A DNA stretch of 64,000 bases. Source: a virus. A program made the translations under genes and the position numbers. Location: positions 32,001-96,000 of the IMG/VR virus record IMGVR_UViG_3300042566_002057; one strand, written 5' to 3'. Below the pieces are notes generated by a model. That model was not told the DNA's origin. It saw only the letters and a list, made by a program, of their open reading frames with translations, and searched no databases. Shown here piece after piece: positions 1,836 through 32,650 of this stretch (position 1 is its first letter; each line of letters starts with the position of its first letter).

Positions 1836-3218
1836 ATGAGATATCTTAAGACTTTTGAGGGTATTGTACCGGTAAGACCTGGTACTAACAAAGAATATAG
1901 AATTCAGAATCTACCACATAAGGGAGAACCTATTGAGGATGATAATAATATCTCTATAATGCAACAAGATTGGTTTGAAAAATTACTACCAGATACTCTT
2001 TATATTGTATCTGATCCAAAATTGAGTAAATTAAACTTCGACCAATCATTAACTCCAGTTCCAAAAGGAGAATATGCCTTCGATAAAAATGATTGTACCA
2101 TAGATAATGGATTAGTTCAATTTAATTATTGGTATGATCCAAGATTACATCCAGGTACTGAGTTAGAAGATGGTGAACCATCTTGTATTGAATTTGATAT
2201 TCATTTCTCAAAAAATGATAGTGGATTTAAATTAATTGTTGATATAACTTATGGTGATCATAAAGCAACTGAATTTACAATTGAAGCTCCAAATAAGATT
2301 AATGTTGTTCACTATACTGGTGTTGATTCTAAATACGATGACTCTACACACTGGGGATTCAAAGATGAATCTATAAAAGATTTAGTGAAATTCTTTAATG
2401 CTTTTAATCATGGTATACAAATACAACCTGAAGATTTATCATTTATTGATGAGCATTTTGATAGTTATAAACACGATATACATAATCAAGATCATCTTTA
2501 TACAGATGAATCTGATTTAATTGAGTTTGGTAATTCAGTGAAAGAATCAAATGATTCTGATATATTTTTGATTATTAATAATGCTAAACCACCTCAGTAT
2601 AAATATTATCCAAAAGTAGTTAAGTATTTAACTATTAAAAATTTACCATTTAGAGTGGCTACTACACCTGAAGAAGTAGAAAAATATAATTCAGAATATA
2701 ATATTATAGGTGCTTTTTCAACCGGTTCTGATTTTAGTATGACTAATCCAGATTCAACTTCTGAATATTCAACAAATGAAAAAGCGTTAGAAATATTAAG
2801 TTGTCCTATAATTTCTATGTGTTATGGTTTCCAATCAATGGCTAAGTTTTATGGTCAAGAAATAACAGGTGGAGACTTAAACTGTAATCAATTCTTACTA
2901 ACTGATTATGATGATTCACACTTCTTGTTTAGTGGAATTGATCTATCAACTCAGAAATTAAGTTTTTGTTTTCATGATTATCCAGTTAATGTACCTTCTG
3001 GTTTTAGAAATATTGCAATGTTAGGTGATGTTATTTCTGGAATATCAAACACATCAACCGAAAGATATGGTATACTTTTTCATCCTGAAGAATTAGAACA
3101 AACTTATATTATCTTAGATAATTTTGTAAATCATTGTTATTCTAAGGTAAGTTTTAATAAAGAAAGTGAGTTTATTCTACAAACTTATGAATCTTTTATT
3201 AATAAAATCAAAAAATAA
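1836..3218 (+). CDS. unknown N-terminal domain fused to a class I glutamine amidotransferase domain
   Basis: C-terminal half has STGS, SMCYGFQ (catalytic Cys) and FHPE; N-terminus MRYLKTFE; AATATATA upstream. Confidence 0.75.
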   Translation: MRYLKTFEGIVPVRPGTNKEYRIQNLPHKGEPIEDDNNISIMQQDWFEKLLPDTLYIVSDPKLSKLNFDQSLTPVPKGEYAFDKNDCTIDNGLVQFNYWYDPRLHPGTELEDGEPSCIEFDIHFSKNDSGFKLIVDITYGDHKATEFTIEAPNKINVVHYTGVDSKYDDSTHWGFKDESIKDLVKFFNAFNHGIQIQPEDLSFIDEHFDSYKHDIHNQDHLYTDESDLIEFGNSVKESNDSDIFLIINNAKPPQYKYYPKVVKYLTIKNLPFRVATTPEEVEKYNSEYNIIGAFSTGSDFSMTNPDSTSEYSTNEKALEILSCPIISMCYGFQSMAKFYGQEITGGDLNCNQFLLTDYDDSHFLFSGIDLSTQKLSFCFHDYPVNVPSGFRNIAMLGDVISGISNTSTERYGILFHPEELEQTYIILDNFVNHCYSKVSFNKESEFILQTYESFINKIKK

Positions 3219-3250
3219 TTTGGTCAGATTGAAACTTATCTATATCTTTG
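3219..3250 (+). promoter_or_regulatory. Bacteroidota-type primary sigma promoter of the leader/tRNA operon
   Basis: TTTG (3219-3222), 20-nt spacer, TATCTTTG (3243-3250). Confidence 0.75.
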
Positions 3251-3309
3251 TAGTATAAATCTGACAAATAATTAAAAAGAGAGTAATAATATTTAATATA
3301 TAAGAAATA

Positions 3310-3405
3310 ATGACAACAATTAACGTAAATATCGCACAAGTTAACCCGCAACCTCAGGATCAGGATCGTGAGAGAGTGGCTAACTATGTCTTTACAATAA
3401 GTTAA
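3310..3405 (+). CDS. attenuator leader peptide MTTINVNIAQVNPQPQDQDRERVANYVFTIS
   Basis: ATG 3310 to TAA 3405; codon run CCG CAA CCT CAG GAT CAG GAT at 3346-3366; AATATATA motif at 3295-3302; too short for the ORF track. Confidence 0.8.
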   Translation: MTTINVNIAQVNPQPQDQDRERVANYVFTIS

Positions 3406-3463
3406 TGTTTAAGTTAAATAAATTTGTAAAACCCGGTTAGTCACAAACTAATCGGGTTTTTTT
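3376..3463 (+). promoter_or_regulatory. transcription attenuator (antiterminator/terminator pair)
   Basis: Terminator AAAACCCGGTTAGT/ACTAATCGGGTTTT plus U tract (3428-3463); GTGGCTAACT (3376-3385) can pair over 10 bp with GGTTAGTCAC (3435-3444). Confidence 0.8.
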
Positions 3464-3465
3464 AT

Positions 3466-3538
3466 TGTCCTATGGTGTAATTGGCAACACGTCTGGTTTT
3501 GATCCAGAAGAGTTGAGGTTCGAGCCCTTGTGGGACAG
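3466..3538 (+). tRNA. tRNA-Gln(UUG)
   Basis: Acceptor TGTCCTA/TGGGACA; anticodon arm TCTGG-TTTTGAT-CCAGA; GGTTCGAG T-loop. Confidence 0.92.
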
Positions 3539-3543
3539 CAAAA

Positions 3544-3617
3544 CGAGAAGTGACTAAGGTTTTAAGCACGGGCGGTCTGGAGCCGTCAGTTAGTGGGTTC
3601 GATTCCCACCTTCTCGA
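3544..3617 (+). tRNA. tRNA-Pro(UGG), atypical (C33, A37, weak D arm)
   Basis: Acceptor CGAGAAG/CTTCTCG with A73 (Pro identity); GGCGG-TCTGGAG-CCGTC; GTGGG-TTCGATT-CCCAC. Confidence 0.75.
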
Positions 3618-3622
3618 CAAAT

Positions 3623-3695
3623 GGTCTATTGGTGAAATGGCTTATCATCCCATCCTGTCACGATGGAGTAGACGGATCGTAACCGTCATAGACCG
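3623..3695 (+). tRNA. tRNA-Asp(GUC)
   Basis: GGTCTAT/ATAGACC with G73; CCATC-CTGTCAC-GATGG; T-loop ATCGTAA. Confidence 0.9.
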
Positions 3696-3759
3696 CACAA
3701 AGTAACTGTTTGGCGGTGAAAGTACTCTTTAGAGAATAGAGTAAAATAATTCTCAATAT

Positions 3760-3842
3760 TGTGGAGTCGGCTAATTGGCAGGCCACCTGACTTTGAATCA
3801 GGGAGATAACACTCAGTGTAGGTTCGAGTCCTACCTCCACAA
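3760..3842 (+). tRNA. tRNA-Gln(UUG) with long variable arm
   Basis: TGTGGAG/CTCCACA; CCTGA-CTTTGAA-TCAGG; variable arm GAG-ATAACA-CTC; GTAGG-TTCGAGT-CCTAC. Confidence 0.85.
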
Positions 3843-3849
3843 CAAAAAA

Positions 3850-3937
3850 CTAGGTGTGTAGGCAATTGGAAGCCGACCTGATTTGGGGTCAGGAATGAAC
3901 ATAAAGTTCTATGTGGGTTCGAGTCCCACCACTTAGA
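3850..3937 (+). tRNA. tRNA-Pro(UGG) with long variable arm
   Basis: CTAGGTG/CACTTAG with A73; CCTGA-TTTGGGG-TCAGG; variable arm GAAC-ATAAA-GTTC. Confidence 0.85.
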
Positions 3938-3943
3938 CAAATT

Positions 3944-4016
3944 GGTCTATTGGTGAAATGGCTTATCATTCCATCCTGTCACGATGGAGTAGACGGATCG
4001 TAACCGTCATAGACCG
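3944..4016 (+). tRNA. tRNA-Asp(GUC), near-identical copy of 3623-3695
   Basis: Same cloverleaf, one substitution. Confidence 0.9.
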
Positions 4017-4042
4017 CAAAAATTTAGAAATTTAATATAAGT

Positions 4043-4270
4043 ATGTTTGGTTGGAGAAAAGAAATATCAAATTTAGAATGTGATATAATCGCAGTTGAAG
4101 GTTATTTATCAGGTCTAAATTATCGTCTTAACTCACTTGTAAATCTTAGTAATAATCCTGATTATAGAGGTGATTTAACAGATGAAATAAAAAGAGTTAG
4201 ATTAGAAATAGAAGAAAATGAGATTAAATTAAACGAATTAAGACTCAGATTGAATCCACCTTCCATCTGA
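4043..4270 (+). CDS. small coiled-coil hypothetical protein
   Basis: 75-aa ORF directly after the tRNA array. Confidence 0.5.
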   Translation: MFGWRKEISNLECDIIAVEGYLSGLNYRLNSLVNLSNNPDYRGDLTDEIKRVRLEIEENEIKLNELRLRLNPPSI

Positions 4271-4624
4271 TAAAAACTCAAAAGTTCCAACATAATCAAA
4301 TCTATCACCCCACTCTTTTGGTGATATAAGTGATAGAAACTCCTCACCATTTTCTTTTATATAAAGATGATATGATTTACCAGGTATTGGTTCAAAACTG
4401 TGTTTTGCTAGGTAAAGTCTTTCATTGATATTTATCTCTTCAATTAACTTTTTGTATTCGGATTGTAACTCAGAAAATTTAGAACTGAAATGGTGTTTAA
4501 GTTTAGAAGTTTTTTCTAACTTAAATAATTGTATATCGTCTGGTGAAAATTTTTGAGAACCAATTTCTGTAGGATATGCCTTTAATCTACGATCATCAAC
4601 AAAACTATCCGGTTTTTCTTTCAT
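4238..4624 (-). CDS. DUF2452-like protein
   Basis: AYPTEIGS...FEPIPGKSYHLY...FLSLISPKEW pattern. Confidence 0.65.
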   Translation of the reverse strand: MKEKPDSFVDDRRLKAYPTEIGSQKFSPDDIQLFKLEKTSKLKHHFSSKFSELQSEYKKLIEEININERLYLAKHSFEPIPGKSYHLYIKENGEEFLSLISPKEWGDRFDYVGTFEFLSDGRWIQSES

Positions 4625-4668
4625 ATACTTTATATAAAATAGATTAATATTGTTTTATATATAGTTAG

Positions 4669-5121
4669 ATGAAGACCTGCGTTTACAAAATACAATTTGA
4701 TAAAAACTCTTTTGATCTCAATGATGATTATGATAGATTATCTGAAGTAGAGAAAGAAAGAATTTCGGATTTAGATGCTGAAACTTTTTTTGACTATGAA
4801 AAAGATGGAAACTATACTTGTTTTGTAATAACTACTCCAGTCGAAATGAAGAAGTATATTTCAATACTAACTAACAATCTTATTATTTGTGACTGTCAGG
4901 ATATTTCTTCAGATGTTTTAAAATTCAAATTAGATTTAGAAGAAGAGTTAAGAGACCAAATCTCAACTATCAATTCAATAAAATATAGTTTCTTTATAGA
5001 TGATATTTATGAATGGATTGAAAGTAATTTAGATATGGATATGGTTTTAGATAGAATATCAGAAGTCGGTATTGATTCTCTTTCTAAAATTGAAAAAGAT
5101 TTCCTAAATAACTTTCATTAG
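4669..5121 (+). CDS. hypothetical protein
   Basis: 150-aa ORF ending DMVLDRISEVGIDSLSKIEKDFL; TATATA upstream. Confidence 0.65.
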   Translation: MKTCVYKIQFDKNSFDLNDDYDRLSEVEKERISDLDAETFFDYEKDGNYTCFVITTPVEMKKYISILTNNLIICDCQDISSDVLKFKLDLEEELRDQISTINSIKYSFFIDDIYEWIESNLDMDMVLDRISEVGIDSLSKIEKDFLNNFH

Positions 5122-5171
5122 GTTTGTTTATTACTTAACTTTTATTTATATTTGCACTATAAACTATCATT

Positions 5172-5342
5172 ATGCAAAAATTTAAAACAAAAATTGTTAA
5201 AAATATTGGTCAATCTATGGCTGATTTTATAATCAAAAGACTTGAATCTACATCGACTCAAGAAGAATTTGATTTCTGGTTTTCAATGGGTACTAAATTA
5301 AATGCCTATTGTGTAGTTTTTCATGACATTTACTTAGACTAA
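5172..5342 (+). CDS. small hypothetical protein (56 aa, MQKFKTKIVK...)
   Basis: ATG 5172 to TAA 5342, after TATATTTG (5147-5154) and abutting the next gene. Confidence 0.6.
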   Translation: MQKFKTKIVKNIGQSMADFIIKRLESTSTQEEFDFWFSMGTKLNAYCVVFHDIYLD

Positions 5343-5343
5343 T

Positions 5344-5739
5344 ATGAAAAAATTATTTTTAGACGATATAAGACAACCAAAAGATGCAATCAATCTTGTA
5401 CCATCACATCACAATAGAATGTATTGGGAACAAGATTGGCATGTTGTAAGAAATTACAAAGAGTTTACTAACTGGATATCATTTCATGGTGTACCTGACT
5501 TAATTAGTTTTGACCACGATTTGGCTGATATTCACTATGAAGTAGACTTCTCTGATTGGGAATTTTCTTCTGACCAACTTGGTGTTGAAGAAACTGGACT
5601 TGACTGTGCAAAATGGTTAGTTGATTACTGTGTAGACAATGGATTTGGTTTACCACAATATATCGTTCATTCTGCAAACCCTGCTGGTAAGAAAAATATC
5701 CAAGGATATTTAGATAACGCAACAAAACACTTATTTTAA
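5344..5739 (+). CDS. cyclic-phosphate-processing receiver-like domain protein
   Basis: KLFLDDIR, ISFDHDL, TGLDCAKWL and HSANPAG motifs. Confidence 0.75.
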   Translation: MKKLFLDDIRQPKDAINLVPSHHNRMYWEQDWHVVRNYKEFTNWISFHGVPDLISFDHDLADIHYEVDFSDWEFSSDQLGVEETGLDCAKWLVDYCVDNGFGLPQYIVHSANPAGKKNIQGYLDNATKHLF

Positions 5740-5740
5740 T

Positions 5741-6046
5741 ATGATTAGTTTTATTGAAAAACATTTAATAACAGCTATCACAAATCAAGTTAAAGAAAAA
5801 TATAAAATTCTAAAATTTAGTGGATTTCTTTATTTTGATGAAACGATACCTGATGGTAAAAAAGAGATTAATAGAGTAAATGAAAGTAATCCTTTTCCTA
5901 AAGAAGAAGTTTTGCCTTTAAGTTGGTACTTTATTAGACCAGCTACTTTGGCTAAAATTTATCTTAAACTCAAATTTAATCAATTTTATATCTATAAAGA
6001 GATAGATGGTAAAAGCCACAAAATGAGAATTAAAAATAGAAAGTGA
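5741..6046 (+). CDS. hypothetical protein
   Basis: 101-aa ORF in an operon. Confidence 0.6.
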   Translation: MISFIEKHLITAITNQVKEKYKILKFSGFLYFDETIPDGKKEINRVNESNPFPKEEVLPLSWYFIRPATLAKIYLKLKFNQFYIYKEIDGKSHKMRIKNRK

Positions 6047-6759
6047 TTTTAGAAAAGGACTTTTCTTGGGCTACTAAACTTAGTTACGACACTGAGTACT
6101 ACTGTGATGAATACGGATGTAATGAAGAACGTATTTGTAGGTGCTCAGTGATTAGTAACGCTCAAGTCACTGGAGTCAGATTTTCGGACTTAAATAAAGA
6201 AATTTTTGACGAGTATCGAGATAACTCTACTATCACTAAAAGAAATAATAAACTAAATTCTTTACTTCATAACATTACCTATAATATAGATTGGTATACA
6301 GTAAATAGAATTCTTGTTGCAAACAAACTTTTTCTACCTCAGTCTTGGAACATAAATATATTCAACGGATACTATGGTCAGGAAATTGGTGAAGTAACAA
6401 TCGAACCAGAGCTATCTAAAAAGATAGACACTGAAATTAATAAGGCTCTTGAAATTTTAGACCTACAAAAAAGAATAGAATATTTACTTACTATCGAATA
6501 TGGTGGTGTTCTTCCAGAACTTAAAAATTGTAAATGGGAAGAGATAGAAATTGATTCAGATAAAATTTATTACGGTAATACTCGTCACAAAGATAATGTT
6601 CTATCAAAAGAACTGGATTATTATTCAGATAGTCAATATAAAGGAATTCGAGGAATTGTTATCAATAAATTTGGAGGTTATCAATTAATAGATGGTTATC
6701 ATAGATGTTTATCAACTAAACTATCTACAGTAAAGGTTTTAAGAGCTTCTAAATATTAA
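6043..6759 (+). CDS. protein with C-terminal ParB/Srx-like domain
   Basis: YQLIDGYHR motif; Cys-rich N-terminus. Confidence 0.55.
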   Translation: MILEKDFSWATKLSYDTEYYCDEYGCNEERICRCSVISNAQVTGVRFSDLNKEIFDEYRDNSTITKRNNKLNSLLHNITYNIDWYTVNRILVANKLFLPQSWNINIFNGYYGQEIGEVTIEPELSKKIDTEINKALEILDLQKRIEYLLTIEYGGVLPELKNCKWEEIEIDSDKIYYGNTRHKDNVLSKELDYYSDSQYKGIRGIVINKFGGYQLIDGYHRCLSTKLSTVKVLRASKY

Positions 6760-8693
6760 AGATTATGCCACTCTTCGGAGTCTAGCTCTTCAAATCTTGT
6801 AGACAACTTAGTTTTGAGTTCATGAATAGATTTTCTATATTCTTCATCATCATCAAATTTCATTCTAGTTTGACCCTCAACTTTTATTATATCGTCTAGT
6901 TGTTTGATTTTAGTTTCTAACTTATTGAGAACATTCTCTAATACTTCATCCACATTTTTATTGTATTGTATAATATCAATCACTCTTGAGTTATCCATAT
7001 TTATCTCATAATCTAAAGCAATTGCATCTTCTTCTAATAACCATTCTACTCCATAGATATCTGGTGAGTCAGATGATTTAGGCTCACCTACTTTATAAAT
7101 TGTTCTTTCTAAAATCTTAGGGATATACTTATCTTCATAGTCTTTTGTAAGAAGGTCTTTTTGTATGTACTCATAATCATCCCAGTCAGAATATTTATCA
7201 CATAGTTTTTCATACCATAACATATTTCTCATTTCTCTGAGTTTGATTATGTCTCTATCATTCATATAACACCAGTTTCCTTCTGAATTTTCAACATCAC
7301 CATCTGTATAGATTTCAGTAATTGTTTTTACTGCTCTTTCATCCCAAATCCAATTTCCATAAATATCTGAATAAACAGCATCATCAACGTGAACATATTC
7401 ATCTGAATGCTCATCATAAACGATATCATCGTCATCTTGATGGTACCAACCTCTTCTTCTACTTGAACCGACATCAATTCTAACTGCATAATCTCTTAAC
7501 AAATGGTCGCCATATGCGTCTGAATAAACAGCTTCATCTTCTGGTATCATTCTATCATGCCATTCAGACCAAACACCACCTTCAACTTCACTATACCCAC
7601 CACCAGTATCTTCTAATATGTAACAACCTTCTTGGTCACTTTCTTGATTATCATCATTATAAAGTTTACCTATTCTTGGGTCATATCTTCTAAAAGTGTC
7701 CATATAAGGATATCTTTGATAGTCATAGTCACCTCCGAATCTATCAACTTGAACATCCATATCAACATTTATTTCATTTCCGTTATAAGTTATATTAGTA
7801 AAACTATGGTGATTATTATTTGTTTTGTAAATCCATCCTTGTTCTTTTGCAAAGTTTCTAAATTTATTAACATCTGAATCTTTAATAGTATATTGTCTAT
7901 CCATAAAATATTCAACACCTTCAAATTTTTCACCAATTCCACTATGAATTGATTTAAATTTCCAAATTAAGGCTCTTCCTAAAATTTTATCATCTTCTCT
8001 GAGAATTAATAATCTACAAACATCTGGATTTTTAACATAGATATTAAAGATGTTTCTTTTTTGAGCCATGCAAGAATTACCAAGTGTTCCACTTTTTTCT
8101 TTATAATTATCAGAGTTATACCAAAATGCGATATCATCTCCAGATACTAACTCAAAGTGTTCTCCAGATTTTTCTACAGCTGCCTTAAATGAGTTTACGA
8201 ATTCCTCGACTTGTTTAGAATTATATTTACCAGGAAATACTTTATTAACTAATCTACCTATAGCAATTTGATTTCTTCCTTTAACATATGGATCTACACC
8301 ATCATCAAAGTTACCCATTCCTCTAAGAGAACTTTTTAGATTACCATATTCTTTATTATGAATATACCAAATATCATCAGCTAAATCTTTGTTGGGTTTT
8401 TGGTCTAAGTCAATACCATTAATGTATAAATCTTTAAGATCCGGAAACTTTTCATCTAATATCTTTTTAACATTTCGCATTGTAGAGAATGAAAGAAATC
8501 CTTCTTTATCTAAATCAATAAAAGTAATATCTGGTTTTATATCAGTTGATTCTATACCTAATAAATCATCACTAATATCATCAGAAACTTTATTTAATTG
8601 TTTTCTTAAAGCGGGTGAAAAGTAAATCATCGATTCATTAATTAGACTTTCTAATAACAAATCTTCAACAAATGAATTATATCTATATAACAT
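6756..8693 (-). CDS. large acidic phage protein with internal repeats
   Basis: 645 aa; NSCM...GRALIW...MDRQY core; repeated AVYSDxYG units; AATATATA upstream. Confidence 0.7.
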   Translation of the reverse strand: MLYRYNSFVEDLLLESLINESMIYFSPALRKQLNKVSDDISDDLLGIESTDIKPDITFIDLDKEGFLSFSTMRNVKKILDEKFPDLKDLYINGIDLDQKPNKDLADDIWYIHNKEYGNLKSSLRGMGNFDDGVDPYVKGRNQIAIGRLVNKVFPGKYNSKQVEEFVNSFKAAVEKSGEHFELVSGDDIAFWYNSDNYKEKSGTLGNSCMAQKRNIFNIYVKNPDVCRLLILREDDKILGRALIWKFKSIHSGIGEKFEGVEYFMDRQYTIKDSDVNKFRNFAKEQGWIYKTNNNHHSFTNITYNGNEINVDMDVQVDRFGGDYDYQRYPYMDTFRRYDPRIGKLYNDDNQESDQEGCYILEDTGGGYSEVEGGVWSEWHDRMIPEDEAVYSDAYGDHLLRDYAVRIDVGSSRRRGWYHQDDDDIVYDEHSDEYVHVDDAVYSDIYGNWIWDERAVKTITEIYTDGDVENSEGNWCYMNDRDIIKLREMRNMLWYEKLCDKYSDWDDYEYIQKDLLTKDYEDKYIPKILERTIYKVGEPKSSDSPDIYGVEWLLEEDAIALDYEINMDNSRVIDIIQYNKNVDEVLENVLNKLETKIKQLDDIIKVEGQTRMKFDDDEEYRKSIHELKTKLSTRFEELDSEEWHNL

Positions 8694-8729
8694 GTAATAT
8701 ATATTAAAATTATTTTTTATATTTGTAAT

Positions 8730-9206
8730 ATGAATTTACCAGAACCATTTGTTATACTACTTATAGGTCCCCCACTTTCAGGTAAGACTACCTGGATACG
8801 TGAAAATTTTCCAACAACTGATGTTATTTCGCGTGACGAAATTGTAATGGAAGTTTATGGGTCTAAAAACTACACCGAAGCATTTGGTAGTGTTGATCAA
8901 AAAGAAGTCGATAGAATTCTTAATCAAAGATTTTTAGATTTTTCAACTGAAAAAAGAAATGTGATAGTTGATATGACTAACATGACTATTAAAAGAAGAA
9001 GAGCCACTCTTAATTACTTCTCAAATGATTACTATAAAATGGCTGTAATCTTTCCTATACTTTCAGATGATGAGTATGGAAGAAGAAATCTTAAAAGAAT
9101 TAAAGAAGAAAATAAAGATTTACCAATGCATGTTATAAAAAATATGATATCTTCTTACAATCCTATCTCACCAGACGAAGGATTTGATAAAGTAATTTCT
9201 TTATAA
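8730..9206 (+). CDS. polynucleotide kinase-like P-loop protein (AAA_33)
   Basis: GPPLSGKTTW, ISRDEI and VDMTN motifs; TATATTTG at 8718-8725. Confidence 0.8.
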   Translation: MNLPEPFVILLIGPPLSGKTTWIRENFPTTDVISRDEIVMEVYGSKNYTEAFGSVDQKEVDRILNQRFLDFSTEKRNVIVDMTNMTIKRRRATLNYFSNDYYKMAVIFPILSDDEYGRRNLKRIKEENKDLPMHVIKNMISSYNPISPDEGFDKVISL

Positions 9207-9279
9207 ATTTTAATAGAACCTTTGTAAAATTTGGTTTTTAGAGGTTTTGTGCTTATATTTGTTATAAATCAAAATATAT

Positions 9280-9636
9280 ATGACTTCATCTAATTCTAAA
9301 TACGTCTTAAATCTTAATGATTTAGTTATCAAAGAAAAAGAAGTAGTATCAGATTGGGAAGAACTGATTTGTGAGGATGAAGATGAGTATTTTACTCGAG
9401 ACGACCAATATATTCTATTTGATATGAATGGAATAGAAGTCTCTGTGAATTTTGAGTTGACTGTTCGTGGAAGAGTTTACTCAGATCCAGGTGACTATTG
9501 GACACCACCGAGTTGTGATGTTGATATTGTGAGTGTTGAAGTTGATGTGACTGATTTGTTTATTGACGACTATGATGTTTTATTAGATAGAGAGTTAACA
9601 AAAACAATGGAGTCATTAGTTAAAAAATATTTATAA
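9280..9636 (+). CDS. hypothetical phage protein (PGDYWTPP motif)
   Basis: 118-aa ORF after TATATTTG (9254-9261). Confidence 0.65.
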   Translation: MTSSNSKYVLNLNDLVIKEKEVVSDWEELICEDEDEYFTRDDQYILFDMNGIEVSVNFELTVRGRVYSDPGDYWTPPSCDVDIVSVEVDVTDLFIDDYDVLLDRELTKTMESLVKKYL

Positions 9637-9639
9637 ACT

Positions 9640-9960
9640 ATGGACAAAGTTTATTTTAATAAAGACTACTACGGTAGTTGGTGGTTAAAATCACTTGAAG
9701 ATTTTTATTCATTTGACTGTGTTAATATAACTACAAATGAAATATCAAATCATATACTTTCTTGGACTCGTAATATCGACGTTTCTATTTATGATGAAGA
9801 AGTAATTAGAGTCTATGATATTGAAGTAGATAAAGAGAAATATTACTTTTTAGTAATTCCTAAAAATAATGCTTTTATTCTTAAAGCTAAAAATCCACTT
9901 GAATTAGAAAGATTAGTAAATAACAATAATCTAATATTAGTAGGTACTACTTTAGATTAA
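9640..9960 (+). CDS. hypothetical protein
   Basis: 106-aa ORF. Confidence 0.55.
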   Translation: MDKVYFNKDYYGSWWLKSLEDFYSFDCVNITTNEISNHILSWTRNIDVSIYDEEVIRVYDIEVDKEKYYFLVIPKNNAFILKAKNPLELERLVNNNNLILVGTTLD

Positions 9961-9981
9961 TCTAATTTTATATATAGTCAT

Positions 9982-10842
9982 ATGAGAGTAAGAAAACTCG
10001 GAGACTATAAACCGAAAGTGCTAATATTTCAAGGTTCACCAAGAGACGAAGATACTTGTTCAGATATGGATTCTAAAACCCATAAAGTAGTAAAGTATAT
10101 AAAGTCAAAATGGTCACCTTTCGTTAGTTTTCATGAAATAGACTTAGCTGTCAATCAAAGTAAAAGACCAATAATTCAACCATGTAAGGGTTGTATATCT
10201 ACATCTGGTGGATTTCATTGTCACTTTGCTTGTTCTTGTTATTCTAAAGGTGATAAACAAAAGAAAGATTTATTAGCAGAAGCTGATGTTTATCAATTAT
10301 TACAGGATTGTGATGCATTTATAATTGTTTCACCAATACACTGGCATTCTCTTACATCACAAGTAAAATTACTTTTTGATAGACTGGTGTGTATAAATCA
10401 AACTTTAACTGTTGATGATGCAAAGAAATTAATGGGTGATGGAAATATCAAAAACTCAGAAATTACTGGTAAGTTTTCTAAGTCTGGTAAATATGATCAT
10501 ATGTTGAGAAATCACTTAGAAGGAAAAGTTGCTGCTTTTTACGTACACGGTGATGATGGTGCTGATGATTATGAGGGTAAAGAACTTCCAGAATCATATC
10601 AAGATGTTTTTGATGATGGATTTGGTAAAAATCCTAAAAATGTTGTAATGCCATTTGTAATGCAACTTAAATACTCTGGTGTATTTGTACCTGATGAATT
10701 AATTGAAGCTTTTTATATAAATAAAGGTGTCAATTATTATGTGGCTAATCAAAAATTTAATAAAGAAAAAGAATTTTTTGATAAAGCTGATACACTTATA
10801 GATAATCTATTGAACTATTTAGACGAAAAATCTAATATATAA
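9982..10842 (+). CDS. flavodoxin-fold NAD(P)H-dependent FMN reductase / iron-sulfur flavoprotein
   Basis: FQGSPR, PCKGC...HCHFACSC and DAFIIVSPIHW...KLLFDRL. Confidence 0.8.
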   Translation: MRVRKLGDYKPKVLIFQGSPRDEDTCSDMDSKTHKVVKYIKSKWSPFVSFHEIDLAVNQSKRPIIQPCKGCISTSGGFHCHFACSCYSKGDKQKKDLLAEADVYQLLQDCDAFIIVSPIHWHSLTSQVKLLFDRLVCINQTLTVDDAKKLMGDGNIKNSEITGKFSKSGKYDHMLRNHLEGKVAAFYVHGDDGADDYEGKELPESYQDVFDDGFGKNPKNVVMPFVMQLKYSGVFVPDELIEAFYINKGVNYYVANQKFNKEKEFFDKADTLIDNLLNYLDEKSNI

Positions 10843-10845
10843 GAT

Positions 10846-11352
10846 ATGTATATTAAAAGATTCAATGAAATGGTCGGTTTTGATGATGAAGAAACCAGAG
10901 ATAGATTAGAGATACCTAATCTCAGAGGTGAACTTGAGCCATCAAGTGTTTCCATGAAACCTTACTCTAAACCTTTTGAGTCAGAAACAACAGAGACTTT
11001 TGTTAAAAAACTATTATATAGATACCCTGTTTTAGACAGATTTCATGGAAATATTCAGAAAATTGATTCAACCGAAGTTTATAATTTTTACGCAACGAGC
11101 TTAGAACCCAAAGACGGAATGGAATTTTATACTCAATTATCATTAGCCTTTAATAAAGGTGACTACTATTGCTTAGCGGTATTAAGAGGACTAGAAGATT
11201 TTGATGATGAAGATAAATGGTATAAAAAAGACATTACTGTAGAAAATGTCGATGATACATTTGAGTTTGTAGATGCTTTTCTAAAAGCTTGTAAAGGTCT
11301 ACATATAGTTGCTAAATCTCATTTAGAGGAAGATAGATTTAGAAATAACTAA
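10846..11352 (+). CDS. hypothetical protein with N-terminal MYIKRFNE motif
   Basis: 168-aa ORF; AATATATA upstream. Confidence 0.65.
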   Translation: MYIKRFNEMVGFDDEETRDRLEIPNLRGELEPSSVSMKPYSKPFESETTETFVKKLLYRYPVLDRFHGNIQKIDSTEVYNFYATSLEPKDGMEFYTQLSLAFNKGDYYCLAVLRGLEDFDDEDKWYKKDITVENVDDTFEFVDAFLKACKGLHIVAKSHLEEDRFRNN

Positions 11353-11379
11353 TCTTTTTTAATTTTTTTTTATTATTTT

Positions 11380-11693
11380 TTTGGTCAATTAAAACTTTCG
11401 CTTTATATTTGTATAAATAAAGTCGGTAACGATTTTACGTTCATTGAAATATTAAGGGGAAGTTCCAGAGAGGCAAATGGGGTTTCAGTTGGTGCTGAAA
11501 TTGGTCTTAAGATCTTCGTAGGTTCGAGTCCTATCCTTCCCCACAAAAAGTAAATTTTTTTACAAAAGATTTGGTAGATTAAAAAAAAGTCATTATCTTT
11601 GTAAAACGAAATTGAGATAGGCAACGATTCAGATACAAGTCTCAATTTTTTTTACAAAAGATTTGGTAGAATAAAATAAAATATCTATCTTTG
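11380..11693 (+). promoter_or_regulatory. three tandem Bacteroidota-type promoters
   Basis: TTTG-N20-TAnnTTTG at 11380-11411, 11570-11601 and 11662-11693. Confidence 0.8.
11456..11543 (+). tRNA. Tyr-like tRNA body with aberrant 6-nt anticodon loop; identity undetermined
   Basis: GGGGAAG/CTTCCCC; D arm CCAGAGAGGCAAATGG; GTTTCAG-TTGGTG-CTGAAAT; long variable arm; GTAGG-TTCGAGT-CCTAT. Confidence 0.65.
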
Positions 11694-11706
11694 TAAAACA
11701 AAATTG
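11553..11706 (+). repeat. imperfect ~62-bp direct repeat (duplicated promoter unit)
   Basis: TTTTTACAAAAGATTTGGTAGA...TATCTTTGTAAAAC.AAATTGA at about 11553-11614 and 11644-11706. Confidence 0.85.
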
Positions 11707-11731
11707 AAAAAAGAAATATAAAAATACACAT

Positions 11732-11804
<73 letters not shown>

Positions 11805-11809
11805 CTAAA

Positions 11810-12706
11810 GAAAAACGTTCTTTGATTTATTGATTTTACAGATTCTTTGACTTCGGTCATTGATGAATGTAACGGCCGCTTATGGTCGATAAATAAACCT
11901 CGAAAGGGGGATAAAGTGGATACAAAAGCTAATTGTATCTGCGTCTTGAGAGTTCTTCGGAACAATTGAGGTCGAGTAAGCAAGTGGGGCACCACAAGTT
12001 CTGAGTAGTCGAGGGTAACACTGTAGACCAAATGAGTTTGTGACTGGGCAATTGTAGATTGTTCAGTTGACTTCGGAAGAGGAATAGGAATAACCCATAG
12101 GAATTTTGTAAGAAATAAAGACTCACCGGTTTTTACTATTGCGAGTTCCAACTCAAAAGGTGTCTTAAAGTTGAAAGACAATCAGTCGTACAGGTGGTGC
12201 TGTTGACTGACACTAATCTCTCTACCAAGAGAGTAGATAAACCGAAAGGTAAGTCGTGGTGAAGATATCTTGAAGAGTTGTGATGGAGGCATCACACGGA
12301 GTAGTCCAGTATTCTTGAGACCAAAAGTTTTGAGAGCTGAGAGGTGACCACTACTTCGACATATCTACTAGCACTAAATTTCTAACTGTTAATTGGAAAC
12401 ATTTAAAAAATAAGAAATCGAAAGTGTTACCTAGTTACTGATGAAAGGTACCTACTTAGTCGTGAGTGTTCACGGCCACTGAAGCTCGAAAGGCTGACGT
12501 GATTTCATCGAAAAACTTATAGAGGGTCGAACCTCGAATCAGCTCGCAAGGTTGAATAAGCGGATTAAATGGAGAGTAAACAGTAACTCAAGAAGTGGTT
12601 AGTCTAACTAACCGGTACTGACAGAATACTACTCAAAAGGTAGTGGATAAGAAGGGAAACAATAATCCAACTAAAGTTCTGTCGCCATAGGATGTAATCT
12701 CAGTCC
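11810..12706 (+). ncRNA. large structured RNA, GOLLD-like
   Basis: About 900 nt, GC-richer than flanks, no credible ORF, many UUCG/GNRA-capped hairpins, lies between tRNAs, ends in GGAT-GTAATCTCA-GTCC plus U tract; family assignment from size and context only. Confidence 0.7.
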
Positions 12707-12719
12707 TTTTTTTTTATAT

Positions 12720-12793
12720 GGTCGGTTCGTCTAGCGGTTTAGGACGATAATCTTTTCAGATTAGAAACAGAGGTTCGAATCCTCTACCGACTA
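12720..12793 (+). tRNA. tRNA-Glu-like with 18-nt anticodon arm
   Basis: GGTCGGT/ACCGACT; Glu-type D arm GTCTAGCGGTTTAGGAC; arm ATAATCTTTTCAGATTAG. Confidence 0.75.
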
Positions 12794-12877
12794 CGAGTTT
12801 TCGTAGTGGTTAACTTATCCTCTAAACAGAGGGGTCTGTCTCAGAGACAGGGTGGATACCCAACTCCACACTAATAT

Positions 12878-12984
12878 GGCCCGTTCGTCTACTGGACCCG
12901 TAAGGGAAACTGAAACTAAGGTGGAAGTTTAGGATGTCCAATTTTTCGATTGGAAGACAGAGTGTTCGAATCCTCTACGGGCTA
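12878..12984 (+). tRNA. tRNA-Glu-like with ~30-nt D-loop insertion and 18-nt anticodon arm
   Basis: GGCCCGT/ACGGGCT; GTCT...GGAT D stem enclosing the insert; TCCAAT-TTTTCG-ATTGGA; bulged T stem. Confidence 0.65.
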
Positions 12985-13008
12985 CAAATAAAAACCCAGA
13001 CGTGTACT

Positions 13009-13030
13009 CCCATCTTCGGATGGGTTTTTT
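13009..13030 (+). terminator. intrinsic terminator closing the RNA operon
   Basis: CCCATC-TTCG-GATGGG-TTTTTT. Confidence 0.85.
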
Positions 13031-13063
13031 ATGCTTTTTTTGATAATTGTGTAATATTATAAC

Positions 13064-13549
13064 TTGATGAATATAGAAATCGAAAGAAAATTTTTACTTA
13101 AATCAATGCCAGATGTTAAACCAACTGAAGTAATTAAAATTGAACAATGGTATTTTAAAAATAACGAAGGCATCTGGGAAAGAGCTCGATACTGCAACTC
13201 GAATATTAAAGGCAAGTATTATATACACACCATCAAAACAACAATCTCAAAAGGCGTAAATATGGAAGATGAACATCCTCTAACAAAAGAGGAGTTTAAC
13301 CTATTTGTTGAGAATTGTAAAAAAGATGGAGTAGAATCTAGAAGTATATCTAAAAAAAGATGTATCTATCCACAAGGTAAATTAAAATGGGAAGTTGATA
13401 AATTTGAAGGTCACCTAATTATTGCTGAAATTGAAATTCCGGAACAAGACTATGAAGTTGTAATTCCTGAACATATCAAAAAAAGAGTCATAATTGAAGT
13501 GACTGGAATAAAACAATTTAGTAACAAAAACCTTTCTAACAAAATCTAA
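13064..13549 (+). CDS. CYTH-domain (triphosphate tunnel) protein
   Basis: EIERKFL, WEVD and IAEIE motifs. Confidence 0.85.
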   Translation: MMNIEIERKFLLKSMPDVKPTEVIKIEQWYFKNNEGIWERARYCNSNIKGKYYIHTIKTTISKGVNMEDEHPLTKEEFNLFVENCKKDGVESRSISKKRCIYPQGKLKWEVDKFEGHLIIAEIEIPEQDYEVVIPEHIKKRVIIEVTGIKQFSNKNLSNKI

Positions 13550-19328: not shown

Positions 19329-20155
19329 AAAAGAAAATTAAAATAGACTTTACAGACTTCTGGGGTGGATTTGATAAGACAAATAATTACTTCTACAACT
19401 TATTGAAAGATGAATTTGATGTGGTGATAACTTCTAATCCTGACTTTTTATTTTTCTCTGTTTTTGGTAACCAACATCAAAATTATAAGTGTAAAAAGAT
19501 TTTTTACACTGGTGAGAATGTTGCACCACCGTTAGGATATTGTGATTACTCTTTCTCATTCGATTATTTAGATGATGTGAGAAACTATAGACTACCACAT
19601 TATTTATTATATGATGGTTATTATGAATTAGAAAGAGAAAAGATAATTGATAATAGTTTATCCAATCGTAAGTTTTGTAATTTTATTGCTTCTAATGGTA
19701 ATTGTCAAGAAAGAAATCAATTTGTTCAATTATTATCACAGTATAAAAAAGTAGATTGTGGTGGTCAATGGATGAATAACATTGGTTATGCGGTAACTGA
19801 TAAGAGAAAATTTCAATCAGAATATAAATTTTCCATCTCATTTGAGAATAATGCTTATAGACCTCAATTTCCTGGATACACGACTGAGAAAATTATGGAA
19901 CCTATGACAGTCAACTCAATGCCAATATACTGGGGTAATCCAGAGATTTATAAAGAATTTAATACTAAATCTTTTGTAAATTTTTACGATTTCAACAATA
20001 TAAACGAAATGGTTGACTATATTATAGAACTCGATAAGAATGATAACTTATATTTAGATAAGTTAAGAGAACATTGGTTTGTTAATAATGAAACACCAAC
20101 TAATAATAAGATAGAAAATATAAAGTCTTTCTTATATAAAATATTTAATAACTAA
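19325..20155 (+). CDS. alpha-1,3-fucosyltransferase (GT10)
   Basis: YKFSISFEN...GYTTEKI...PIYWG. Confidence 0.88.
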   Translation: MKKKIKIDFTDFWGGFDKTNNYFYNLLKDEFDVVITSNPDFLFFSVFGNQHQNYKCKKIFYTGENVAPPLGYCDYSFSFDYLDDVRNYRLPHYLLYDGYYELEREKIIDNSLSNRKFCNFIASNGNCQERNQFVQLLSQYKKVDCGGQWMNNIGYAVTDKRKFQSEYKFSISFENNAYRPQFPGYTTEKIMEPMTVNSMPIYWGNPEIYKEFNTKSFVNFYDFNNINEMVDYIIELDKNDNLYLDKLREHWFVNNETPTNNKIENIKSFLYKIFNN

Positions 20156-20779
20156 ATGACTGGAATAGTAGTAGCAAGATACAATGAAGACACAAAGTGG
20201 TTAGAAGAATTTAATGATTTTAATATTCACTTGTATAATAAAGGTGAAGATGAATTAGTAAATTCAATAAAACTACCAAATGTTGGAAGAGAAGCACATA
20301 CTTATCTAACACATATTGTTAATAATTATGATAATCTTGATGATGTTATAATTTTCACTCAGGGTAATCCTGATCACGCCTCTGATATAAATGAATTTAG
20401 AAGTTTAGAAAACTTCAGTGGTTACAAAACATTTGTTGAATATTATGGGAATATGACTGATGGTGAAATAATATCTAGAAAGAATCAACCAGGTGCTTAT
20501 TGGATGGCTTTTTCACAAAGAAGTCAAATAACACCAAATGTTGTTTACAAATTTCTATATGGAAAAGAAATTTCTAATTGTTGGGTTGCTGTTTGTGCAA
20601 TTTTTGCGGTAGACAAAGAAACAATATTAAAACACCCAAAAGAAAAATACCAACAATTACTTATGTTATTTGATAGACCAGATTTTAACTGGATGGCTTA
20701 TGTTCTTGAATATAGTTGGACACTTATGTTTAAACCAGAGGGATTCAATACTGAAGAAGTAAAAGAAAATATAATATAA
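20156..20779 (+). CDS. DUF3431-like protein
   Basis: IVVARYNED, LPNVGREAHTYL and FTQG motifs. Confidence 0.75.
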   Translation: MTGIVVARYNEDTKWLEEFNDFNIHLYNKGEDELVNSIKLPNVGREAHTYLTHIVNNYDNLDDVIIFTQGNPDHASDINEFRSLENFSGYKTFVEYYGNMTDGEIISRKNQPGAYWMAFSQRSQITPNVVYKFLYGKEISNCWVAVCAIFAVDKETILKHPKEKYQQLLMLFDRPDFNWMAYVLEYSWTLMFKPEGFNTEEVKENII

Positions 20780-31843: not shown

Positions 31844-32650
31844 GTGAAATTTAGAATTATTCTTCCTCCAGTAGGTGGTTTATTTAGTCAACTACACATG
31901 GGTATTTGTATTCTTATAAAAGAGACAAATTTAGAAGATGTCGAGGCTTTTAATTTGAGTCCTTCCTCAATATATATAAATAAAAAGGATAATTATATAA
32001 TTGAATCATTCAGTGGAATATATGAGATGACTGATGATGACTCATATATTCAAATAAAAGATGATAATATTACTATTGAATATGATAAGTATTTGAGCCT
32101 TTCTAATCCATTTTCTTCAATTGATATTGTTAAGTCCTTACTTAGTAAGATTAGAATTAAACAAGAGTTTTTATCATCTGTAGATGATTATGTAAATAGT
32201 TTTAATATAAATAAAAATACATTGGGTGTACACATAAGATTGACAGATATGAATAAATATCACACAAATGAGTATGGAAATTTATACTACGATGATTTTC
32301 TAATGAAAATAAAAAAGGTATTAAAAGACAACAGTTCTATTGATAACATATTTATATCTTCTGATAATTATGAGTCAATTGAAAAAATAAAAAAAGATTT
32401 GGATGATATTAAAATTAGTTATATAGAAAATATAAAAAGGTGTGAGTTGGAGACTTCAGATAATTATCAATTTCAACTTGATAATCTAAAGAGTGATGAG
32501 TATATAAAAAGCACATTTACAGAAATGTATCTTTTATCAAAGTGTAGTTATCTAGTACATAGAATTTCTGGATTCGCTTTATTCGCCATACTATATAGTG
32601 AAACTTTATCAGAGGATAGAGTTTTTCAAATAAAAAATGAAGAAAAATGA
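31844..32650 (+). CDS. NodZ/GT23-like fucosyltransferase
   Basis: GGLFS, GVHIRLTD, FISSD and LLSKC. Confidence 0.65.
   Translation: MKFRIILPPVGGLFSQLHMGICILIKETNLEDVEAFNLSPSSIYINKKDNYIIESFSGIYEMTDDDSYIQIKDDNITIEYDKYLSLSNPFSSIDIVKSLLSKIRIKQEFLSSVDDYVNSFNINKNTLGVHIRLTDMNKYHTNEYGNLYYDDFLMKIKKVLKDNSSIDNIFISSDNYESIEKIKKDLDDIKISYIENIKRCELETSDNYQFQLDNLKSDEYIKSTFTEMYLLSKCSYLVHRISGFALFAILYSETLSEDRVFQIKNEEK

Follow-up and report, generated by a model that had tools for sequence, protein, structure and literature searches.

The leader-peptide attenuators of enterobacterial amino-acid operons include trpL, hisL, pheL and leuL as well as the multivalent thrL and ilvL. T-boxes recognize uncharged tRNA by means of their specifier codon and T-box sequence, and control genes for aminoacyl-tRNA synthetases, biosynthesis and transporters. 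Phage tRNA arrays, such as the T5 and T4 clusters, are thought to sustain translation when host tRNAs are unsuitable or destroyed, and the question of why and when phages need their own tRNAs has been debated for decades; it has been proposed that such tRNAs compensate for codon usage, replace host tRNAs that have been degraded, or allow escape from defences that cleave tRNA. To our knowledge, no codon-matched leader or terminator has been described upstream of the T5 and T4 tRNA clusters or of the phage tRNAs that evade retron, PARIS or OLD-type cleavage, and we know of no earlier case in which leader-peptide attenuation controls tRNA genes. A search of the full-text literature, which covers few subscription journals and does not prove absence, returned no account of tRNA genes, whether in phages or in bacteria, that are under leader-peptide control. 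This study analyzed such an arrangement in a viral stretch of 64,000 nucleotides (positions 32,001 to 96,000 of IMG/VR record IMGVR_UViG_3300042566_002057; hereafter, the window), where a short leader open reading frame (ORF) and an intrinsic terminator precede six tRNA genes for Gln, Pro and Asp.

The locus is very probably a ribosome-mediated leader-peptide attenuator of the trp/his type that controls a tRNA operon and serves as a feedback sensor of decoding capacity; most likely, the phage makes Gln, Pro and Asp tRNAs only when their codons are read slowly. Within this reading, we infer the translation of the leader, its coupling to transcription, the regulated read-through and the physiological trigger. 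The initial annotation of the window, made by a model without database searches, had proposed a 1:2 / 2:3 / 3:4 attenuator layout over a matching tRNA array, and this proposal is supported by a permutation maximum within the genome, by 32 homologues, by the cultured Cellulophaga phage phi4:1 and by mask folding. Its scope of a single locus was too narrow, the window unit being one of a genome-wide and widely distributed family.

Layout of the locus

The features of the locus, in window coordinates, are listed below.

3219-3252, + strand: putative promoter of the Bacteroidetes sigma-A-like (host) type, with TTTG as the -33 element (3219-3222) and TATCTTTG as the -7 element (3243-3250)
3294-3303, + strand: TAATATATAA motif, 7 nt 5' of the leader ATG
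3310-3405, + strand: leader ORF of 31 codons, MTTINVNIAQVNPQPQDQDRERVANYVFTIS, with start and stop codons and a gene-like start context
3346-3366, + strand: sensor run CCG CAA CCT CAG GAT CAG GAT (PQPQDQD) of the leader
3428-3463, + strand: intrinsic terminator (-17.8 kcal/mol), with a 14-pair stem (3428-3460) that merges on its 3' side into a T7 tract (3457-3463)
3466-3539, + strand: tRNA-Gln (UUG), called by ARAGORN and by the Rfam tRNA model (57 bits), starting 3 nt past the T run
3544-3618, + strand: tRNA-Pro (UGG) with a weak D arm, called by ARAGORN and by Rfam (30.4 bits, barely above the gathering score)
3623-3696, + strand: tRNA-Asp (GUC) with the T loop AUCGUAA, called by ARAGORN only
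3697-3759, + strand: structured spacer between the tRNA triplets, with a possible pseudoknot ACTCT..GAGAAT.AGAGT..ATTCTC
3760-3843, + strand: second tRNA-Gln (UUG), with a long class-II-like variable arm, called by ARAGORN and by Rfam (57.9 bits)
3850-3938, + strand: second tRNA-Pro (UGG), with a long variable arm, called by ARAGORN and by Rfam (29.6 bits)
3944-4017, + strand: second tRNA-Asp (GUC), nearly identical to 3623-3696, called by ARAGORN

The promoter, the 31-codon ORF, the terminator and the six tRNAs had all been marked by the initial annotation, and their positions were confirmed exactly or to within a few bases. Its tRNA order of Gln-Pro-Asp-Gln-Pro-Asp, with the anticodons UUG, UGG and GUC, agrees with ARAGORN (3466-4017), the Asp genes being ARAGORN-only calls. 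The sensor run uses rare codons (in the long ORFs of the phage, Pro is encoded by CCG in 6% of cases and Gln by CAG in 19%), and six of its seven codons can be decoded by the UUG, UGG and GUC anticodons under strict wobble, with CCT requiring four-way U34 wobble. A seven-codon run of P, Q and D is expected 0.23 times across the genome in all six frames; PQPQDQD is the only mixed run of this length in the genome, the remaining runs being poly-Pro inside proteins. An A/T-rich spacer of 22 nt separates the leader ORF from the terminator, which is the sole terminator-like site within 2800-4800. The promoter motif search found none between the terminator and the first tRNA; therefore, the tRNAs (3466-4017) would be transcribed only by way of read-through.

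Leader codons and tRNA blocks across the genome

The window is part of a single contig of 151,950 bp (30.7% G+C), the tRNA genes of which number at least 36 and fall into five regions. Seven leader ORFs lie ahead of seven tRNA blocks, and each is spelled in the amino acids of its own block. These units are given below in genome coordinates, from which window coordinates are obtained by subtracting 32,000.

U1, leader start 6416: MTTNRTHKHFSKSSKWFS..., tRNAs Phe His Phe Trp, then Lys x3, Arg, Ser
U2, leader start 7064: MKKKMETKRKR, tRNAs Lys x3
U3, leader start 7576: MKTIMSTSKSSSRSS..., tRNAs Arg(ACG) Ser
U4, leader start 13701: MMTTVATYYYEVE..., tRNAs Tyr-like, Glu, Tyr
U5, leader start 14449: ...SAFIANGAG..., tRNAs Gly Gly Ala
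U6, leader start 19919: MRTNNTNMMNLTLNVVNITLCNIR..., tRNAs Ile Arg(UCU) Leu Asn Val Ile Thr Val Leu Leu Thr Leu
U7 (the window unit), leader start 35310: MTTINVNIAQVNPQPQDQDRERVANYVFTIS, tRNAs Gln Pro Asp Gln Pro Asp

A leader codon was counted as matched when its amino acid is carried by a tRNA that ARAGORN, run with default settings, calls in the leader's own block. By this count, 64 of the 179 leader codons are matched at the amino-acid level, which is the unique maximum of the 5040 permutations (mean 26.4, standard deviation 8.0); the best derangement, with every leader placed off its own block, reaches 32 matched codons. Matching at the codon level under strict wobble gave 56, again the unique maximum (mean 21.0). 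The matched codons form contiguous runs, with up to 20 different codons strung together in the sister units, and the tRNA units together cover essentially all amino acids.

Additionally, an unbiased pipeline, which sought a terminator at most 60 nt from a tRNA together with an ATG ORF of 8-50 codons ending at most 100 nt upstream, recovered U1, U3, U6 and U7 with one candidate ORF each; applied to the opposite strand, the same pipeline found no units. U2 was dropped as a canonical attenuator for lack of a T tract and was kept in the codon-matching test.

The element at 3219-3252, which we take to be a promoter from the known Bacteroidetes consensus, belongs to a pattern (TTTG-N17-22-TAnnTTTGTA) with 8 matches in the window vs. 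0.54 expected. The same motif lies ahead of tRNA units U1, U4 and U6 and of the leaderless tRNA-Met genes; putative promoters without a leader are present at the tRNA-Met genes and at two odd tRNA-like genes. The leaders of U1, U3, U5, U6 and U7 carry a motif of the TAATATATAA type 6-19 nt before the ATG. In the form TAATATATA(A/C), about 39 copies of this motif occur in the genome, mostly 4-7 nt (in some cases 18-25 nt) 5' of the ATG of an ORF, and the ORFs with this start context, which range from 94 to 1274 aa, include many of the long protein genes of this phage. The TAATATATAA motif may act in transcription, as a phage-type promoter from which near-leaderless mRNAs would start, or in translation, as a start context.

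Homologues and other phages

The 635-kb uncultured phage LR745206.1 is about 82% identical to the window unit over the leader, terminator and tRNAs. A homologue search with a degenerate pattern for N-PQPQDQD matched 2 viral contigs and 47 metagenome contigs, and about 37 of the latter hold true homologues in which an ORF of about 31 codons is followed by a terminator. Every homologue with enough downstream sequence carries Gln, Pro and Asp tRNAs in variable order and copy number (e.g., Pro-Asp x4-Pro-Gln x3, or Asp-Gln-Pro), with one additional tRNA, at the far end, in just two. Chance matches (10 metagenome and 9 representative bacterial) lie in ORFs that are long or GC-rich, and no tRNAs are found close to them; over 185,579 representative prokaryote genomes, the pattern gave chance matches in unrelated bacteria only, with no bacterial or prophage copy.

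An alignment (A1) was made of 32 distinct homologues of the window leader, in which the leader frame is open at 30-32 codons. The only indels within the ORF are a loss of 3 nt (L023) and a gain of GAT, an extra Asp codon in the run (L056), while those 3' of the leader stop codon differ in length. Among the homologues, the Pro codons of the sensor run vary synonymously, and the C-terminal NYVFTIS of the leader peptide is conserved.

Other leader families (FHWK, Ser/Arg and NTLVIC) also have homologues on IMG/VR contigs and in LR745206.1, and the NTLVIC leader of one contig (L014) is followed by a called tRNA-Cys. In phages with genomes of about 640 kb, internal poly-Gln leaders (MTTTQQIQQQQINQTD, MTTSFQQQQQQQINRTD or MTTVQQLQQQQINQKIDME) stand, each with its own terminator, directly 5' of Gln-only sub-arrays.

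L001, 2532-2582: internal poly-Gln leader
L002, 2311-2364: internal poly-Gln leader
L037, 5372-5431: internal poly-Gln leader

The tRNAs of Cellulophaga phage phi4:1 (NC_021788) lie in three blocks whose partition is unlike that of the window phage, and its leaders are unrelated.

phi4:1, leader MKIQRLHLQELEQP... (run QRLHLQELEQP): tRNAs Pro Glu Gln His Leu Leu Arg
phi4:1, leader ...TKTGITVIDKTKGARA..., inside gp075: tRNAs Ala Lys Ile Gly Met Asp Thr Val Arg
phi4:1, leader MKTNYCTYNNSNWSFSY... (run NYCTYNNSNWSFSY): tRNAs Tyr Ser Asn Trp Phe

The true pairing of leaders and blocks in phi4:1 scores 47 vs. 13-28 in the five other permutations. Judged from sequence, the poly-Gln sub-arrays and phi4:1 show leaders tracking tRNA content through evolution. 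The gene gp075 (L003 2990-3109, equal to NC_021788.1 87989-88108) is recorded as a 39-aa 'hypothetical' and contains the leader, behind which lie a terminator and tRNA-Ala; it is probably a leader peptide, and its annotated start is probably wrong.

As a negative control, the tRNA region of phage T5 (23 tRNAs and many small ORFs) was scanned, and no terminator-plus-tRNA unit was found there. No close cultured relatives of the window phage were found, the nearest records being uncultured huge phages. Overall, the device is distributed over freshwater and marine metagenomes, phages of about 640 kb, whose genomes are among the largest known for phages, and the cultured Cellulophaga phages phi4:1 and phi17:2, each with three units of this kind.

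Competing helices

Besides the terminator, two hairpins are predicted in the leader RNA of the window unit.

3336-3389, + strand: helix 1:2 (putative anti-antiterminator), -16.3 kcal/mol, with the sensor codons as its 5' half and region 2 as its 3' half
3376-3444, + strand: antiterminator 2:3, -18.9 kcal/mol

The 1:2, 2:3 and 3:4 hairpins are mutually exclusive and have similar energies. The outer helix of the antiterminator is formed by GTGGCTAACT (3376-3385) and GGTTAGTCAC (3435-3444), and the 10-bp pairing with two G-U pairs that had been proposed for these segments was confirmed at 10 of 10 positions; its inner helix joins TTTACAA to TTGTAAA. The protector helix that had been proposed for AGTTAACC proved to be part of the longer 1:2 hairpin, which is present in the minimum-free-energy fold. 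Region 2 (GGCTAACT) is complementary to region 1 (AGTTAAC) as well as to region 3 (GGTTAGTC), the latter two being almost the same in sequence. An invariant AGTTAA at 3399-3405, seen by way of RNAalifold, overlaps the leader stop codon and is a third possible partner of region 2 (CTAACT).

In the alignment of 32 homologues, pairing is kept in 86% of cells for the antiterminator (vs. 23-55% with the partner slid by 1-3 columns), in 88% for the terminator (vs. 29-65% slid) and in 83% for the 1:2 helix (vs. 25-37% slid), the core of which is invariant. The antiterminator has a compensatory pair that is C-G in 25 homologues and U-A in 7, with zero unpaired, and the terminator has an A-U to G-C change (15:10). 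Where alignment position 143 changes from A to G, the terminator partner changes too, and the antiterminator partner is a U, which pairs with both; a U that can pair with either base is the pattern predicted by a dual constraint. The compensated pair joins a codon of the ORF (ACA/ATG) to a non-coding base 5' of the terminator (TTGT/TTAT); because the codon changes together with its non-coding partner, the conserved C-terminal part of the 'peptide' appears to be conserved as RNA. The RNAalifold consensus of the 32 homologues is a weak mixed structure (-6.5 kcal/mol), since it has to reconcile three mutually exclusive folds and includes a terminator variant that does not align properly.

The complementarity was also compared with shuffled sequences. 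When the leader of the window unit was paired with the terminator arm plus loop, the best duplex had an energy of -14.6 kcal/mol vs. -9.1 +/- 2.1 kcal/mol in shuffles (p=0.018). This arm-plus-loop duplex sits just 3' of the sensor run in six of six units, with individual p values of 0.001-0.08 and a combined p of 3.5e-6.

Direction of the switch

The direction of the switch was approached by folding the transcript at its decision point, that is, cut at the end of the terminator 5' arm and with a ribosome mask of 30 nt; the truncated transcript was used because equilibrium folding of the full-length RNA cannot discriminate the states. With the A site on codons 9-19, up to the last GAT of the run, the terminator arm is predicted to be sequestered with a probability of about 0.8, which drops to 0.48 at the next codon after the run and to about 0.2 further on. 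A sequestration step at the end of the sensor run was also obtained in U1, U3, U4, U5 and U6, so that it is present in all six terminator-bearing units. Among the five PQD-family members scanned (the window unit, L001, L019, L027 and L056), the step is present in all except L019, and the extra Asp codon of L056 shifts it by one codon. In these models, a stall on the sensor codons favours read-through, as in the trp/his attenuators, and the direction put forward in the initial annotation agrees with footprint-masked folding of the truncated transcript.

Proposed mechanism and alternative explanations

Transcription would start at 3219-3252, perhaps also at the TATATAA motif just 5' of the ATG, and a ribosome would translate the 31-codon leader as RNA polymerase advances. 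With ample Pro, Gln and Asp aminoacyl-tRNA, the ribosome would clear 3346-3366, and region 2 (3376-3385) would be covered or captured by region 1; the terminator (3428-3463) would then fold, and transcription would end 3 nt short of the first tRNA. With scarce or uncharged tRNA, a ribosome stalled on the run would mask region 1 and leave region 2 free to pair with the terminator 5' arm on its emergence (hairpin 3376-3444), giving read-through into Gln-Pro-Asp-Gln-Pro-Asp. Because the tRNAs made on read-through would relieve the stall, the circuit would act as negative-feedback control of decoding capacity for the sensor codons, and the devices ahead of the other tRNA blocks would form a genome-wide network tuned to separate amino-acid groups.

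Several observations weigh against this mechanism. The full-length RNA at equilibrium forms the terminator at every ribosome position, so that any switching would have to be kinetic, as it usually is in attenuators. Sequestration of the arm with no ribosome present is intermediate (0.48) rather than low in the window unit, and U6 has no anti-antiterminator or protector helix and a no-ribosome sequestration of 0.98. When the 12-nt arm is taken alone, the 2:3 duplex of the window unit is not above shuffles (p=0.43), and the hairpin of U2 has no T tract. Seven of the 32 homologues have a different terminator stem (CCCTCATAAG...), with only GTTAG kept near the loop; in these variants, region 2 pairs with the top of the stem and the loop only, and the predicted switching is weak (0.35-0.44 vs. 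0.1-0.2). The covariation may stem from few evolutionary events. Conservation of the run is not independent evidence, since the search pattern imposed it, and codon positions 1, 2 and 3 are equally variable outside the run, which gives no protein-coding signature.

The equilibrium fold of the full-length RNA, and the lack of a selection signal on the peptide outside the run, would both suit a hairpin that fixes tRNA transcription at a low level, either as a terminator that is constitutive and partly leaky or as a processing structure, with the ORF being no sensor. Such an element is very unlikely, as it leaves unexplained the codon-tRNA matching in seven of seven units and in phi4:1, the kept frame and stop codon with indels in multiples of three, and the position of the arm-complementary segment, which is always just past the run. 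That the codons fit the downstream anticodons would also be expected if tRNA were sensed directly and without translation, with the codon run pairing with the anticodons of uncharged tRNAs and so stabilising the antiterminator, and T-box leaders do sense tRNA and control terminators. This explanation is even less likely: neither a T-box nor another riboswitch was matched with Rfam (3000-13500 at E<=0.5, the whole window at the gathering score), the codons lie in a single frame that extends from a gene-like ATG context to a conserved stop, the codon added in L056 is an in-frame GAT, and the strings of up to 20 different codons in other units are unlike any known T-box. Least probable of all is a genuine small-protein gene with its own terminator, whose peptide acts in trans and behind which the tRNAs merely happen to lie. 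The gene-like start context and the conserved C-terminal NYVFTIS would fit such a gene; however, the conserved C-terminal codons are those of the RNA helices (region 2 and the inner antiterminator) and are compensatory with non-coding partners, variation is spread evenly over the three codon positions, the tRNAs lack a separate promoter, and seven different 'peptides' each spell the neighbouring tRNA set.

A further alternative, put forward in the initial annotation, retains the attenuator and assigns it a counter-defence purpose, namely an on-demand backup for when a host anticodon nuclease or the like destroys Gln, Pro and Asp tRNAs. Two reports describe phage tRNAs that rescue infection from tRNA-cleaving defences (PMC11555353, PMC12445682). 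A stall-triggered switch would answer tRNA loss, each amino acid has two gene copies in the array, and the long-armed second Gln and Pro tRNAs and the odd Asp T loops could suit resistance to nucleases. The sequence, however, does not separate nuclease attack from depletion, codon-usage mismatch or phage-induced turnover of host tRNAs, nor such attack or starvation from plain demand-driven feedback, and no defence or anti-defence gene was identified beside the locus. Moreover, tRNA nucleases usually target one or few tRNAs, whereas the units cover nearly all amino acids, which looks more like general homeostasis. Counter-defence as the purpose is thus possible but doubtful. We would advance with similar reserve the broader idea that large phages of Bacteroidetes possess a self-regulating tRNA supply in which each operon is codon-gated, decoding capacity is gauged continuously for each amino-acid group and the limiting set is transcribed, with tRNA-cutting immune nucleases as one trigger and the odd second copies as resistant replacements. 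If true, this would be a viral sensor-and-response circuit of a new class, and counter-defence would be inducible, not constitutive.

The tRNAs and neighbouring genes

The Rfam tRNA model passes four of the six tRNAs of the window array; for both Asp genes, called by ARAGORN only, no Rfam tRNA match was obtained even at E<=0.5. The T loops of both tRNA-Asp genes have A54/U58 instead of T54/A58; in the LR745206.1 homologue, the T loop is normal. Long variable arms, as in the second Gln and Pro tRNAs, are in bacteria normally confined to Leu, Ser and Tyr tRNAs. The spacer of about 60 nt at 3697-3759 recurs nearly unchanged in homologous arrays, at least 18 of them distinct.

Over-length tRNAs called by ARAGORN (86-90 nt; Lys, Ile and Asn) are also present at genome positions 7228-7316, 20111-20196 and 20374-20463, and over-length Gln tRNAs (82-85 nt, ARAGORN) in two huge phages (L001 2855, L002 2505). 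A tRNA-like gene with an insertion of 35-60 nt lies at genome 7408-7535, with an intron call by ARAGORN -i and a weak match to the Rfam tmRNA/tRNA clan, and further non-canonical tRNA-like genes were seen in the clusters at genome 13844, 14587, 14759, 20626, 20893 and 21241.

Directly 5' of the promoter of the window unit is a 460-aa gene (1836-3218, + strand), of which only the C-terminal class-I glutamine amidotransferase domain was recognized, and which is syntenic in LR745206.1. After the last tRNA, with no terminator between, follows a 75-aa coiled-coil ORF (4043-4270, + strand) that may be co-transcribed with the array. Farther downstream in the window, a full-length GOLLD RNA (Rfam RF02032, 298.9 bits; 12297-12706, + strand) lies between a tRNA-Met and two tRNA-like genes. 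The genes around it are at 11456-11542, 11732-11805 and 12720-12794, the two tRNA-like ones being called by ARAGORN with 2-nt 'anticodons'. The tRNA genes of this region have putative -33/-7 promoters at 11380, 11570 and 11662, and are without a leader ORF or terminator.

Implications and comparison with known systems

If the attenuator reading is true, the phage itself reports the quantity that it monitors, which is the slow decoding of specific codons. The circuit would be a direct feedback loop on translation capacity, and one genome would hold a sensor set for nearly all amino acids. Since the cultured phages phi4:1 and phi17:2 carry the device, experiments are feasible. In practical terms, the units would provide ready-made sensors of tRNA availability for amino-acid groups, and the analysis corrects the annotation of phi4:1 gp075.

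The window device resembles the trp/his-type attenuators in its short ORF, its run of regulatory codons, its alternative 1:2, 2:3 and 3:4 helices, its intrinsic terminator and the predicted step from stall to antiterminator, and it resembles thrL and ilvL in that several amino acids would be sensed by one leader. It differs from the attenuators of amino-acid operons in what it controls, namely tRNAs and not biosynthetic enzymes or aminoacyl-tRNA synthetases, and in that its product would feed straight back on the sensed quantity, the decoding of the sensor codons. Further differences are that the element is viral, that the leader ORF of the window unit extends past region 2 rather than ending before it, and that sister units would sense up to eight amino acids. 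The switching between terminator and antiterminator according to the state of tRNA would be shared with T-box riboswitches (RF00230), which are not translated and bind tRNA directly, whereas the window leader has an ORF. Large arrays of tRNA genes are a feature in common with T4, T5 and the phages whose tRNAs evade defences; unlike T5, where the scanned region held none, the window phage has a codon-matched leader and a terminator ahead of its tRNAs. Overall, the mechanism is familiar, and what is unfamiliar is its target, the closed feedback loop and its genome-wide use by a virus.

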